DNA of 64,000 nt from Gammaproteobacteria bacterium (GCA_035548835.1 DASZSB010000110.1:3538-67537); one strand, 5' to 3'. Shown: positions 31,384-61,246, counted from the stretch's first letter. Numbers and translations are program-made. Notes: generated by a model not told the origin, from the sequence alone.

Positions 31384-31459
31384 GCGGGAATAGCTCAGTT
31401 GGTAGAGCACGACCTTGCCAAGGTCGGGGTCGCGAGTTCGAGTCTCGTTTCCCGCTCCA
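31384..31459 (+). tRNA. tRNA-Gly (anticodon GCC)
   Basis: I folded the cloverleaf by hand. Acceptor GCGGGAA/TTCCCGC, D stem GCTC/GAGC, anticodon stem CGACC/GGTCG with loop TTGCCAA, T arm GCGAG-TTCGAGT-CTCGT, and an encoded CCA. Confidence 0.95.
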
Positions 31460-31476
31460 ATTTCTCAGGCATTGGT

Positions 31477-31508
31477 GGCGGTTCCGTACCGAGGCGTACG
31501 GAACCGCC
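31477..31508 (+). terminator. 13-bp perfect hairpin downstream of tRNA-Gly
   Basis: GGCGGTTCCGTAC (31477-31489) pairs with GTACGGAACCGCC (31496-31508) around the loop CGAGGC. There is no U-tract, so it may be a terminator or a processing signal. Confidence 0.5.
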
Positions 31509-31615
31509 GTCATCGTGCAGTGGCTGAACACGGTCCGCGTCGCGCGGAGCCGACGGCCCGAGCGCGGCGCCGGGGTGTGCCTGCCGACGCGACGCGAGGG
31601 TTCTGCGAGGGCGCC

Positions 31616-32191
31616 ATGGATAGCGTGAGTGTCGGCAAGATCGATACGGCGAGTCGTCAGCTCGACGCGGCCATCGGGCTGTTCTTCTCCGGCAACGACC
31701 TCGTCGCGGTGCACTCGCTGGCGGACTCGGCGGCGCGAGAGCTCGCGGATCTCGTCCGGCCCAAAGCCGCAGAGGCCGCGTGGCACGACCAGGTGCAGAC
31801 CGCGCTGAACTTGGATGCGAGCACCTATCAGACGGTGCTGCGCAGAACCCAGGACCTGCTGACGCCCGAGCAGCGGGACCCCGACGCACGGAACGGCGTG
31901 GATCCGCGGCAGACGGCCGCGTTGATGGTGCAGGTGATCATGAGCATCGGCGGGCTTGGCGTCCGGCCGTCCGTGCCGCAAGCCGTGCTGCAGCTCTGGT
32001 ACTTCGCCTGCATGCTGAACGAGCTGCCTCACCTGCACGCCAATCTGCGCGCGTACATCCTGTCGCGGTTCAAGGATCTCAGCCGCCGCACGGGACATTA
32101 TCAGCTGGCCGTCGGCCGGCGCGTCCTGCAGGAAGACATCGAGAGAAACAGCCGCTCGACTGCGGCGGCGGACTCGGCAGCCGGTCGTTAG
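31616..32191 (+). CDS. hypothetical protein (no recognised family)
   Basis: The ATG at 31616 gives a 191-aa, mostly helical-looking cytoplasmic protein with reasonable GC3 bias. It is the first gene after tRNA-Gly. Confidence 0.5.
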   Translation: MDSVSVGKIDTASRQLDAAIGLFFSGNDLVAVHSLADSAARELADLVRPKAAEAAWHDQVQTALNLDASTYQTVLRRTQDLLTPEQRDPDARNGVDPRQTAALMVQVIMSIGGLGVRPSVPQAVLQLWYFACMLNELPHLHANLRAYILSRFKDLSRRTGHYQLAVGRRVLQEDIERNSRSTAAADSAAGR

Positions 32192-32266
32192 GCCCCCGCG
32201 TGGCGCGGGTCGGCGCCGCCTTCCCGGGCCGTGTGGCGCACGGGAAGGCGGGTGTGGCGTTCGACG

Positions 32267-32932
32267 CTAGCGGCTCGCCCAGTACGGTTTCGGCATCAGT
32301 TTGACGCCGGTCAGCAAGGTCGGCGTGCCGGCGCCGGTCTTGAGGCTCACGGTATGCGCCGTGGCGTCGACCGCGACCTCGGCCGCCAGCGACAGCGTGC
32401 CGGTGCCCGTGCCTTTGCCGTCGAGCTTCAGCTCGAGCACGCCGTAGGGGATTTGCGGGGCCGCCGTGCCGCTCGTCAGCGTCCAGGGCTTGAAGCTGTA
32501 GGAATCCAGCGGCTTCGTCGTCACCAGCGTGATGCGCTGACTGCCGTCGGCTTCGGTCACGCGATGTGCGTACTTCACGGAATGACCCACCGCGCTGCCG
32601 CTCTGCCACACGGCGCCGACGCTCGGCAGCTTGTCGAGCTCCTTCGGCAGATCGGCGCCTGCGCCGAGCGCGTCGACGACGGCTGCGCGGCCGGCGTCGT
32701 CGGACCAGTTCAGCACCTCGATCTTCAACGTGATCCCCGTGGCCGACACGCCGGTCAACGCGGCTTCGTAGGTGTCGGGCGCGGGCTTTTGCGCGAATGC
32801 AGGCGCTGCGAGCAGGAGCGTCGCGAGGCCGGCGGTGGACAGGATTTCACGGGTCAGTCGACGCAGCGTCCGCCCAAAGCGCGTGGCACGCTTCCGAGGA
32901 CTCTGCGGCAGGTGCAGATCGGTCACGTTCAT
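32267..32932 (-). CDS. hypothetical secreted protein
   Basis: 221 aa with a signal peptide (LSTAGLATLLLAAPAFAQ). The mature part is beta-rich, with good coding statistics. No family recognised. Confidence 0.65.
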   Translation of the reverse strand: MNVTDLHLPQSPRKRATRFGRTLRRLTREILSTAGLATLLLAAPAFAQKPAPDTYEAALTGVSATGITLKIEVLNWSDDAGRAAVVDALGAGADLPKELDKLPSVGAVWQSGSAVGHSVKYAHRVTEADGSQRITLVTTKPLDSYSFKPWTLTSGTAAPQIPYGVLELKLDGKGTGTGTLSLAAEVAVDATAHTVSLKTGAGTPTLLTGVKLMPKPYWASR

Positions 32933-33114
32933 ACTCCCTGGTTCCTGGCCCCTCGTGAGGCCCGCACCCGAAACTAGGTCGGGCTCGCGCGAGTTTCAAG
33001 GCTGCGCGGCCAACATGAACGTATTGTCATTTTTTTGTCGGCGCGGGAGCGGCGCCGGGGCTCGGCGCCGGCACGCCTTTTCGACGTGCCGGCGCCAGGG
33101 ATTCGGGAGCCGGG

Positions 33115-59563: not shown

Positions 59564-59771
59564 CTGCGTCCGCGGGGGTACGCTCTGTCCCTGCGGGGGG
59601 TCGAATCCCGGTCCCGGTGCTTGGCAGGTGTCGGCGGTGGTGGCACGGGGGCTGACCGCGCGCCCGGCGTTGTCCCGAGCCGGGTGGGGCGCGAGGCTGC
59701 CGGCTGGTATAGTCGGCGTCAGCCGGCCCCGCCGGAAGAACACCAAAGACCATCCATTGGGGGATCTCACG

Positions 59772-60251
59772 ATGAAAGTACTTGCCGCCGCAGTCGCGAT
59801 TTTTGCCGTATCGGCCGCCGCCAACGCCGCCGAGCCGGTCGTGGCCCTGTCCGCGAAGGACCAGCTGAAGTTGCTCGAGAGCAAGGACCCGCAACTGGCC
59901 GCCAACAAGAAGCTCGTGTGGGACATGTGGCGCACGTTCCTCAGTGCGCACCACATCGATGAGGCCGACAAGTACCTGGCGCCGGAGTACCACCAGCACA
60001 ACCCGAACGCCGAGACGGGTCTCGCGGGCGTGAAGGCCTACTTCCGCTCGCGCAACATGGCTCCGATTCCGGTGCCCGACCACATCGACGGTCTCGTGTC
60101 GATGGTCGCGGAGCGTGATCTGGTCACGCTCGCACTCGTACGCGAGTACAAGGACAAGGAAGGCAAGCCGTACACCACCACGTGGTTCGACATGTTCCGG
60201 ATCGCCAACGGCAAGATCGTCGAGCACTGGGATACCGCGCTGAAACAGTAA
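59772..60251 (+). CDS. secreted SnoaL-like / NTF2-family protein
   Basis: The ATG at 59772 gives a signal peptide (AVAIFAVSAAANA). Y.H.P........G....F and the C-terminal F.I.NGKIVEHWD are typical of the SnoaL-like/ester-cyclase fold. Confidence 0.6.
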   Translation: MKVLAAAVAIFAVSAAANAAEPVVALSAKDQLKLLESKDPQLAANKKLVWDMWRTFLSAHHIDEADKYLAPEYHQHNPNAETGLAGVKAYFRSRNMAPIPVPDHIDGLVSMVAERDLVTLALVREYKDKEGKPYTTTWFDMFRIANGKIVEHWDTALKQ

Positions 60252-60285
60252 GAACGAACTCAGTCATACGAGGGGGAACGAGTCT

Positions 60286-61029
60286 ATGTCGAAGTCATCC
60301 ATGTTCGGTCGCCACGCACTGGCCGCCGGGCTGTTGTTGCTTGCGGGTGCCGCCTTTGCGCAGGGGCCCGCGCAGGAAGAGCCGAAGAACCTCAAGGTAC
60401 TGCCGAAGAACTTCACGCGTCCGCAGGTCATCCAGGTCATGCAGAACTTCACGGCCGCGCTCGGCGTCGGCTGCGAGTACTGCCACGTTGAGAAACAAGG
60501 TGCGCCGCCGGACTTCGCGTCCGACGACAAGAAGGAGAAGGATCGCGCACGCGCGATGATGAAGATCGCGCAGGACCTGAACGCGCGTCTGCCGATGGAC
60601 CTCGGCGAGTCGGCCGACGAGCTCACGCGCGTCGGTTGCATCACCTGCCATCGCGGCGTTCCGGAGCCGAAGCAGATCGGTGAGATCCTCGCCAAGACTT
60701 CGAAGGAGAAGGGCTTCGCAGCTGCGTCCGCGCAGTACAACGAGCTGAAGTCGAAGTACTACGGCGCGCAGGCGTACGACTTCAGCGAGCAGGGCCTGAT
60801 CGCGACCGCCCGCCCGCTGATCCAGCAGAATCGCGCCGACGAGGCGATTCAGTTCCTGCAGCTGAACGTGCAGATGTTCCCGAAGTCCGCGGCGAGCTAC
60901 GTCACGATGGCGCAGGCGCAGCAGGCCAAGAAGGACAACGCGGCCGCGATCTCGAGCCTCGAGAAGGCGCTGGCCATCGACCCGAAGAACGGCCAGGCGC
61001 AGCGCATGCTGGCGCAGCTGAAGAAGTAA
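60286..61029 (+). CDS. di-haem c-type cytochrome (reaction-centre cytochrome-c-subunit-like N-domain) fused to a TPR-like C-terminal domain
   Basis: It has a signal peptide and two CxxCH motifs (CEYCH, CITCH). NLKVLPKN......V...M..F..ALGV.C..CH matches the CytoC_RC-like family. The C-terminal ~110 aa have TPR-like A/Q-rich helices. Confidence 0.8.
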   Translation: MSKSSMFGRHALAAGLLLLAGAAFAQGPAQEEPKNLKVLPKNFTRPQVIQVMQNFTAALGVGCEYCHVEKQGAPPDFASDDKKEKDRARAMMKIAQDLNARLPMDLGESADELTRVGCITCHRGVPEPKQIGEILAKTSKEKGFAAASAQYNELKSKYYGAQAYDFSEQGLIATARPLIQQNRADEAIQFLQLNVQMFPKSAASYVTMAQAQQAKKDNAAAISSLEKALAIDPKNGQAQRMLAQLKK

Positions 61030-61064
61030 GCGCAGCCCGTTTCGGCAGTTCGATCTGACGACAG

Positions 61065-61096
61065 GGGGCGGCCTGGTTAGGCCGCCCCCGTTTGCG
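61065..61096 (+). terminator. rho-independent terminator
   Basis: GGGGGCGGCC / GGCCGCCCCC forms a 10-bp perfect stem with loop TGGTTA, followed by GTTTGCG. Confidence 0.7.
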
Positions 61097-61160
61097 AGTG
61101 TTAACCTTCTGCGCGGCGATTGCGGTGCCCAGGCCTCCTGACACCGACGCCGATGGACGC

Positions 61161-61246
61161 GCCCGGGTGGCGGAAGGGTAGACGCAGCGGACTTAAAATC
61201 CGCTGGCCGCAAGGCCGTGCCGGTTCAAATCCGGCCCTGGGCACCA
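61161..61246 (+). tRNA. tRNA-Leu (anticodon UAA), class II long variable arm
   Basis: The 86-nt sequence GCCCGGGTGGCGGAAGGGTAGACGCAGCGGACTTAAAATCCGC...GGTTCAAATCCGGCCCTGGGCACCA has acceptor GCCCGGG/CCTGGGC and anticodon loop CTTAAAA. It is close to E. coli leuZ in layout. Confidence 0.93.

Follow-up and report, generated by a model that had tools for sequence, protein, structure and literature searches.

In the 64,000-nt stretch of gammaproteobacterial DNA analysed here (GCA_035548835.1; the full stretch is called the window, and coordinates count from its first letter), the genes for tRNA-Gly(GCC), tRNA-Cys(GCA) and tRNA-Leu(UAA) follow uvrC and pgsA in the order and orientation of Escherichia coli K-12, but they are spread over about 30 kb of other genes. 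We consider it probable, at about two chances in three, that these three tRNA genes descend from an ancestral pgsA-linked cluster and were pulled apart by DNA inserted into both spacers, that the split between Gly and Cys is old, and that turnover is still going on at the tRNA 3' flanks. The course of events would have been as follows. An ancestral Gly(GCC)-Cys(GCA)-Leu(UAA) cluster after pgsA would have been separated by insertion into both spacers in an uncultured soil gammaproteobacterial clade; the insert between Gly and Cys, of ~23-27 kb, would then have become an ordinary, vertically inherited block of native composition shared at genus to family rank; and genes would continue to be gained, lost and replaced in the few kb directly 3' of each tRNA. 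The insertion itself may have proceeded by site-specific integration, with the mobility genes lost afterwards, or by recombination-driven replacement between conserved flanks.

The tRNA triad and its probable ancestral arrangement

The three tRNA genes, all on the plus strand, are located at 31384-31459 (Gly, the glyW equivalent), 56807-56880 (Cys, the cysT equivalent) and 61161-61246 (Leu, the leuZ equivalent). All were called by both ARAGORN and Rfam (69.1, 63.3 and 57.9 bits, respectively, with a gathering score of 29 for the Rfam tRNA model), and the CCA end, as read from the sequence, is encoded in each of them. Class-II DAHP synthase, uvrC and pgsA, assigned by Pfam, lie immediately upstream of the triad. 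The upstream core anchor uvrC (28889..30754, +) carries GIY-YIG, UVR, UvrC_RNaseH and HHH domains, and pgsA, which encodes a CDP-alcohol phosphatidyltransferase (30767..31327, +; PF01066, E=8e-38), ends 56 nt upstream of tRNA-Gly on the same strand. The distance from Gly to Cys is 25,347 bp and that from Cys to Leu is 4,280 bp, and the two spacers together hold 30 open reading frames (ORFs) on both strands. These ORFs are our own gene calls, which were scanned against Pfam and NCBIfam, and the unassigned or variable ones also against PHROGs. The anticodons, order, strand, gap sizes and distance to pgsA had already been reported in a reading made earlier from the sequence alone (the sequence-only reading), and ARAGORN, Rfam and Pfam confirmed all of them, as the genome NC_000913.3 did for the E. 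coli order uvrC-pgsA-glyW-cysT-leuZ.

In E. coli K-12 the three genes form a single transcription unit. The upstream genes, anticodons, order and strand are the same in the window, and in both organisms tRNA-Gly starts a few tens of nt after pgsA. However, the E. coli spacers are 54 nt (glyW to cysT) and 12 nt (cysT to leuZ), so the window differs from a contiguous cluster of this type in the size of both spacers, in the 30 ORFs that they contain and in having separate motifs before Gly and Cys. The tRNAs themselves are well conserved in related loci. For example, tRNA-Gly is 100% identical in L129, L130 and L139, tRNA-Cys is 97-99% identical in L132, L133, L134 and L138, and tRNA-Leu is 95% identical to that of L138, where homology covers the tRNA only and neither flank. 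ARAGORN also proposed a tRNA-Arg(ccg) at 57539-57622 (+, 84 nt), which was tried as a fourth tRNA or island boundary. It was rejected as a false positive because it lies inside a well-supported PafA-like phosphatase ORF and the Rfam tRNA model does not match it even at E<=10.

The ancestral state was examined by a pgsA-anchored scan with one genome per species, which gave at least 80 loci, all with pgsA at no more than 65% identity; the counts given here are among the matches listed, and tRNAs were called contiguous when all spacers were <300 nt. Adjacency of pgsA and tRNA-Gly was found in most of the 80 listed loci. Gly-Cys-Leu was contiguous after pgsA in 16 of them, from both Gamma- and Betaproteobacteria, including Sedimenticolaceae, a Steroidobacteraceae metagenome-assembled genome (MAG), Chromatiales, Alcanivoracaceae, Vreelandella and Rhodocyclaceae. 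About 18 loci had Gly and Cys contiguous with no Leu nearby, nine had Gly alone, and in another nine the tRNAs were split by 1.4-9.4 kb with order and strand retained. These nine split loci carry unrelated cargo from one lineage to the next, most of it ordinary: RecQ in Nitrosomonadaceae, and elsewhere a peptidase M1 with a carboxylesterase, a hybrid sensor kinase, a GDSL lipase or an outer membrane protein. The 4.3-kb Gly-Cys insert of one locus, L071 from an unrelated gammaproteobacterial MAG, holds a plasmid RepA_C-family gene (13765-14673, -), which is the only clear sign of a mobile element in the split loci surveyed. Downstream of pgsA, the 80 listed loci contain none of the genes that separate the tRNAs in the window.

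Because the contiguous triad occurs in 16 of the 80 listed loci and in E. coli, it is most simply taken as ancestral, and we regard an ancestral contiguous pgsA-Gly-Cys-Leu cluster as well supported. The match of the window to this cluster goes beyond chance, with the same anticodons, order and strand after the same gene and contiguity in many other lineages, and an intermediate state exists in a relative in which Cys and Leu are 1,290 bp apart. Splitting of the cluster happened many times independently. The sequence-only reading had proposed that a contiguous ancestral operon was pried apart by insertions at tRNA 3' ends; the contiguity is upheld by the listed loci and E. coli, and the insertion is what we infer from the evidence given below. 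The scan informs the ancestral state only; it was discarded as a means of dating the split, with all listed relatives at no more than 65% identity and no intervening gene shared.

Promoter-like motifs stand before tRNA-Gly and before tRNA-Cys. A consensus scan found a sigma-70-like promoter site, TTGCCG-18 nt-TAGAAT, at 31342..31371 (+), 12 nt before tRNA-Gly, with one site observed against 0.1 expected. The form TTGC(C/T)G-17/18-TAGAAT precedes Gly in 6/6 clade members, and the rest of the spacer has diverged. A strict -35/-10 scan gave no site before tRNA-Cys. An extended -10-like motif, TGCTAAATT, lies just past the gcdH stop codon at 56788..56796 (+), 10 nt before this tRNA, and it is identical in all three sequences compared (the window, L132 and L138), where the surrounding intergenic DNA has diverged. 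No conserved motif was found before tRNA-Leu; a GC-rich hairpin (61064-61089) lies between this tRNA and the preceding gene for a c-type cytochrome with TPR. Since a conserved promoter-like element precedes Gly and another precedes Cys, it is most likely that the tRNAs are now separate transcription units and no longer one operon, as far as can be judged from the sequence.

The Gly-Cys block in the window's own clade

UvrC homologues with 79-92% identity are abundant in soil and peat metagenomes, and the contigs that carry them allowed the Gly-Cys interval to be compared within the window's own clade. In a genus-level relative (contig k141_4822807, UvrC 91%), the Gly-Cys distance is 23,473 bp. 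Its gene order starts with pgsA, Gly, a 221-aa hypothetical protein, a PQQ-type glucose/sorbosone dehydrogenase (GSDH), a hypothetical protein, DUF6152, HpaB, zf-PARP and MFS, continues with DUF3450, ExbB and further genes up to TPR, then DUF3450, ExbB, CorA, ApbE and PepSY_TM, and ends with TPP enzyme, DUF4440, HupE, Ysc84, glutaryl-CoA dehydrogenase (GcdH) and tRNA-Cys. This is the order of the window, minus only the two window-specific ORFs. The proteins of the block have a mean identity of ~85% to this relative, compared with ~82% for 11 upstream core proteins, which indicates that the block has co-diverged with the core. A more distant contig, Ga0494116_000001 (L138; UvrC 84%, GcdH 73%), has a Gly-Cys distance of 26,898 bp and shares most of the block genes, namely GSDH, the hypothetical protein, DUF6152 and zf-PARP on the Gly side and ExbD, TonB, TPR, DUF3450, ExbB, CorA, ApbE, TPP enzyme, HupE and GcdH on the Cys side. 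The order from TPR to GcdH is also the same in a 49-kb contig with GcdH at 75%, and a UvrC match of 85% lies on a contig that is likewise 49 kb long. Furthermore, nucleotide collinearity with L132 extends over window positions 45589-56880, ending at the 3' end of tRNA-Cys.

Altogether, ~23 kb of the 25.3-kb Gly-Cys interval is syntenic in relatives down to 84% UvrC or 73% GcdH identity. Because the relatives share both the block and its spacing, the Gly-Cys split, with most of its 25 kb, is older than the point at which these lineages diverged, and the block behaves as core genome of the clade. A pattern of presence in some relatives and absence in others was seen for 31465-32265, 35781-37095 and 56881-61160, and not for the ~23 kb of 32266-56806. 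The proposal that everything between the tRNAs is accessory DNA is therefore contradicted for most of the interval, which is syntenic in relatives, has diverged like the core and is native in composition. The sequence-only reading had itself treated shared spacing and genes among relatives, together with core-like composition, as evidence against a split ancestral operon. Part of that evidence was obtained, as close relatives have the same spaced arrangement and genes and the composition is core-like.

A different explanation of the spaced arrangement would be an assembly artefact, in which metagenomic contigs were misjoined at conserved tRNAs so that the arrangement exists in no single genome. 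The tRNA-Gly gene does act as an assembly repeat in these metagenomes: two short-read Logan contigs (L002 and L003), independent assemblies of the same species, end inside it at window position 31410, which shows that assemblers break at this repeat. However, the MAG contig GCA_964529455.1, which is 99.98% identical over window positions 20767-37238, crosses the pgsA-Gly junction, and a JGI contig crosses the same junction together with the next two genes. The Cys and Leu junctions are crossed by a separate 14.3-kb JGI contig of the same species, which runs from PepSY_TM through GcdH, the phosphatase, a hypothetical protein, SnoaL and the cytochrome c/TPR gene to PfkB in the order of the window. 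The GcdH-tRNA-Cys junction is common to three relatives, in two of which Gly and Cys stand on one contig (23.5 and 26.9 kb). Misassembly at tRNA repeats was thus rejected on independent contigs and on the synteny of relatives, and we give it practically no credence.

Turnover at the tRNA 3' flanks and the origin of the split

The DNA directly 3' of tRNA-Gly and tRNA-Cys, where the sequence-only reading had placed insertions, is indeed variable between close relatives: homology stops there and the segments that follow differ in length. Nucleotide homology to relatives ends at window positions 31459-31464 and 56880. Among congeners, the variable segment after Gly measures 65 nt in L141, 801 nt in the window and 5,251 nt in L129, where it holds CBS, phosphorylase fragments, GNAT and DUF2934. 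In the window this lineage-specific segment (31465..32265, +) begins where homology to congeners ends (31463/31464), and homology resumes at 32266/32277; it contains one orphan ORF of 191 aa (31616-32191, +) with no Pfam, PHROG or NCBIfam match. Just after tRNA-Gly there is a perfect 13-bp hairpin (GGCGGTTCCGTAC / GTACGGAACCGCC, 31477..31508, +) with a 6-nt loop and no T-run, and each relative has a different hairpin at that position. A homologous stretch of ~60 nt was also noticed right after Gly in L129 (12576-12680) and L130 (12605-12700), consisting of a terminator-like hairpin followed by GTTTCCGCC(A/G)ACGTCC. It is missing from the window and L141, and it may be the ancestral 3' flank that was later replaced.

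The segment after Cys measures 1,290 bp, ~2.4 kb, 4,280 bp or at least 9.9 kb, and the gene sets are all different. L138 has a single RGP-family gene in the 1,290 bp between Cys and Leu. The 49-kb contig, in which the positions of the tRNAs were deduced from gaps, has three small genes (a 78-aa ORF, an outer membrane protein and DUF748). In L132 the segment is at least 9.9 kb long, encodes cytochrome b, two P-type ATPases, acetate kinase and phosphoketolase, and lacks tRNA-Leu. None of the four genes between Cys and Leu in the window was found at the equivalent spot in these relatives. After Leu, the window has a PfkB-family kinase, and L138 and the 49-kb contig (with tRNA-Leu again placed by its gap in the latter) have an FHA/AAA gene (-) and the ccm operon. 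Different gene sets in the same interval, the mark of hotspots that lack integrases, were therefore observed as three states after Gly and four after GcdH-tRNA-Cys. The pattern is nested, with the DNA next to a tRNA the most variable and the DNA further away conserved.

The intervening DNA has the composition of the core, as the sequence-only reading had supposed for its GC content. The GC content at third codon positions (GC3) is 0.886 in the Gly-Cys interval and 0.891 in the core, a leave-one-out synonymous-codon likelihood gave no difference between the two (p=0.4), and the tetranucleotide correlation to the core is 0.971±0.013 for the interval versus 0.979±0.003. The only tetranucleotide dip, a mild one to 0.946-0.96 at 40-50 kb, lies over a TonB2-like gene cluster. 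Total GC is 2.3 points lower between the tRNAs (p=0.004), and this is not specific to inter-tRNA DNA because the genes after tRNA-Leu show it too. A compositional island was sought by GC, GC3, synonymous-codon likelihood, dinucleotide delta* and tetranucleotide correlation and gave no island signal; the GC3, codon, dinucleotide and tetranucleotide measures overlap those of the core. GC skew is positive across the whole window.

The searches for traces of mobility agreed with the earlier statement that no integrase, transposase or flanking direct repeat survives. No integrase or transposase domain was found by Pfam and NCBIfam in the 30 intervening ORFs, no PHROG (phage or mobile family) match was obtained for the unassigned or variable ORFs, and NCBIfam reported nothing mobile. 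Decayed att repeats matching the tRNA 3' ends were searched by blastn-short, with whole tRNAs and with 3' halves extended by 20 nt as queries, in the window and the loci of nine relatives, and the best off-target matches were 12-14 nt long (E>=0.04), which is chance level. Over 31-62 kb the sole sizeable repeats are the paralogous DUF3450-ExbB and ExbD genes. No partial tRNA copy was found in the window, and neither partial tRNA copies nor integrases were seen in the relatives' loci that were compared by blastn-short and gene lists. A Y2 transposase fragment occurs after tRNA-Gly in L140.

These results bear on a stronger version of the insertion idea, in which the 25.3 kb and the 4.3 kb were all horizontally acquired through tyrosine integrases acting at tRNA 3' ends and have since been ameliorated, with the integrases lost. 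It would account for the position between tRNAs with order and strand retained, for the variability of the tRNA-proximal DNA, for the slightly lower GC and tetranucleotide correlation of the TonB2 part, and for the plasmid RepA_C gene between Gly and Cys in L071 and the transposase fragment in L140. However, there is no integrase, att repeat or phage-family match, and both GC3 and codon usage are native. In addition, relatives keep ~23 kb in synteny, with a divergence like that of the core, and the genes serve ordinary metabolic and transport functions of a chromosome. The sequence-only reading had also placed the unassignable genes mainly between the tRNAs; this concentration is weak, as 5/30 ORFs between the tRNAs and 1/26 in the upstream core lack a Pfam match (Fisher p=0.20, not significant). 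For 32266-56806 the strong version is largely refuted, and for the locus as a whole we consider it quite unlikely. We give still less weight to a cargo-only process that repeatedly targets these tRNA 3' flanks without integrase or repeat, which would involve small islets mobilised in trans by a recombinase from another locus, or an undescribed tRNA-end-directed mechanism, and would have acted independently on the same three tRNA spacers in many gamma- and betaproteobacterial lineages.

The native composition and core status of the block would also be expected if no DNA had been gained and Cys-Leu (or Gly) had been moved beside resident genes by a translocation, or by two inversions, that broke the chromosome within the tRNA spacers. 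In other lineages, inverted or displaced tRNAs do occur after pgsA (Cys on the minus strand in L014, Leu in L048 and Gly in L055), and many loci have Gly or Gly-Cys alone. However, all three tRNAs keep their ancestral order and strand within 30 kb, as they do in all nine listed split loci; one inversion on its own would have reversed the distal tRNAs; GC skew is positive across the whole window; and the nested variability fits accretion at a tRNA flank. We therefore hold such a rearrangement to be unlikely, though it deserves some weight. Insertion into the spacers is favoured because order and strand are kept here and in all split loci and because the variability is nested.

Several points weigh against separation by insertion as we propose it. 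The breakpoints at the tRNA 3' ends have a resolution of tens of nt, because intergenic DNA would not align in any case at 78-82% nucleotide identity. Two clade members, L130 and L140, have other genes for at least 9 kb after Gly. The insertion mechanism is a deduction, as neither the window nor the relatives' loci yielded a mobility gene, an att repeat or a partial tRNA copy, and the sampled relatives leave a gap in UvrC identity of ~61-79%, which keeps the branch of the split from being dated. A translocation that brought Cys-Leu next to gcdH is possible. Finally, the proposed promoters are consensus matches backed by conservation.

Gene content and relation to known tRNA-linked sites

The syntenic DNA between Gly and Cys consists of three parts and a transport cluster, with families assigned by Pfam. 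The first part (32266..35780) comprises the 221-aa hypothetical protein (32267-32932, -), GSDH (33115-34356, -), a 294-aa hypothetical protein (34435-35319, +) and DUF6152 (35363-35773, +); collinearity extends to L141, L129 and, in part, L139, with proteins 74-94% identical. It is followed by a window-specific segment of 1.3 kb that is not adjacent to a tRNA (35781..37095, -) and corresponds to 61 nt in L141 and 72 nt in L129 at the same spot. Its 380-aa ORF (35842-36984, -) has no family match, and in L139 distant paralogues of it (38-49%) stand next to genes for DUF6152. Such genes have unannotated partner ORFs of ~260-450 aa, in the window with the 294-aa and 380-aa ORFs (34435-36984). Such pairs recur in two or three diverged copies near tRNA-Gly in relatives, sometimes with a Lactamase_B gene, at 13.8-21.4 kb in L130, 13.4-21.4 kb in L139 and 4.4-9.7 kb in L135. 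DUF6152 and its partner ORFs look like a locally duplicating module without assigned function.

The second part (37065..40437) has an identical gene order in L141 (80-88% identity) and contains an HpaB-like flavin monooxygenase (37065-38573, -), the zf-PARP protein (38570-39103, -) and an MFS transporter (39169-40437, +). The zf-PARP protein, of 177 aa with two PARP-type zinc-finger stretches, is encoded just upstream of the HpaB-like gene with a 4-nt overlap and is an unusual partner for HpaB. The pair is kept in L141, and L139 has a zf-PARP gene at the equivalent position, at the end of its sequence. Next comes the TonB2-like energy-transduction cluster (41179-46596, +) with DUF3450, two ExbB, two ExbD, TonB and a TPR protein; a paralogous second pair of DUF3450 and ExbB comes after it (46731-48694, +). 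L132, L138 and the 49-kb contig keep this arrangement (41179..48694). The two DUF3450-ExbB pairs have ~50% protein identity and, over parts, 72-79% nucleotide identity (repeats D1/D2), and the duplication is old and retained because the extra pair is conserved in L132 and L138. The third part (48834..56764) carries CorA, ApbE (-), PepSY_TM, TPP enzyme (-), DUF4440, HupE/UreJ, Ysc84 and glutaryl-CoA dehydrogenase (55601-56764), the last one named so by JGI.

The cargo between Cys and Leu (56881..61160), assigned by Pfam and NCBIfam and all on the plus strand, consists of the PafA-like alkaline phosphatase (57105-58739), a hypothetical protein with an internal repeat (58937-59515), a SnoaL-like protein (59757-60251) and the c-type cytochrome with TPR (60286-61029). 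The protein of ORF 58937-59515 has a repeated domain because the ORF contains an 88-nt internal direct repeat (59023-59110 / 59293-59380, +), 72% identical and 270 nt apart. The phosphatase was tried as a metagenome query and abandoned, as its 71% homologues sit in unrelated contexts without tRNAs nearby. The PfkB-family kinase 3' of tRNA-Leu (61282..62274, +; Pfam, called adenosine kinase in the sources) was rejected as a downstream anchor. It is very conserved, with some 79-82% matches assigned by their sources to other phyla, and it is a poor anchor because its neighbours are unrelated; around the homologues with 83-88% identity in L135 and L136 there is neither a tRNA-Leu nor any gene of the window.

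Two riboswitches were noticed elsewhere in the window. A c-di-GMP-I-GGC riboswitch (5107-5184, +; 65.6 bits, gathering 59) lies directly upstream of an ORF (5275-7236) for a 653-aa protein with He_PIG (putative Ig) and fibronectin-III domains, which suggests c-di-GMP control of a surface or adhesin-like protein. A manganese (yybP-ykoY) riboswitch (8611-8791, +; 51.9 bits, gathering 45) is immediately followed by an ORF (8795-9373) for a GDT1-family divalent cation/proton antiporter.

The sublocation of islands, prophages and integrative and conjugative elements at tRNA 3' ends was reportedly described by Williams in 2002. The window resembles such classical tRNA-targeted islands in that its variable DNA starts at the tRNA 3' end, but differs from them in lacking an integrase, a direct repeat of the tRNA 3' end and a compositional deviation. 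In Dickeya, the glyW/cysT/leuZ site flanks the solanimycin cluster and other secondary-metabolite clusters and has been described as a variable site (PMC9765074). There the same tRNA trio marks a site with differing gene sets, as at the Gly and Cys 3' flanks here. However, the Dickeya clusters are strain-variable and have integrase, transposase and phage remnants at their borders (PMC9765074), whereas none were found in the window and most of its DNA is conserved in the clade. Many hotspots of horizontal gene transfer are without integrases or mobile elements (Oliveira, Touchon and Rocha 2017, PMC5635113). The locus is similar to these in its differing gene content at the same chromosomal spot with no recognisable mobile element, in this case adjacent to tRNAs, although those hotspots were defined by pangenome statistics over many genomes and by flank recombination (PMC5635113) and the window was compared with 3-5 relatives. 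Because both hotspots without mobility genes (PMC5635113) and the Dickeya trio (PMC9765074) have been described, the locus is a new example of a known phenomenon and opens no new mechanism.

Its value is that the break-up of a conserved tRNA operon can be followed here in a clean and datable case. It also gives a caution for annotation: location between tRNAs alone is no mark of accessory DNA, and in this clade only 31465-32265, 35781-37095 and 56881-61160 should count as lineage-specific. On the reading that we favour, the orphaned tRNAs carry their own promoter-like motifs, and inserted DNA can turn into core chromosome of a clade while the few kb closest to the tRNAs keep turning over.

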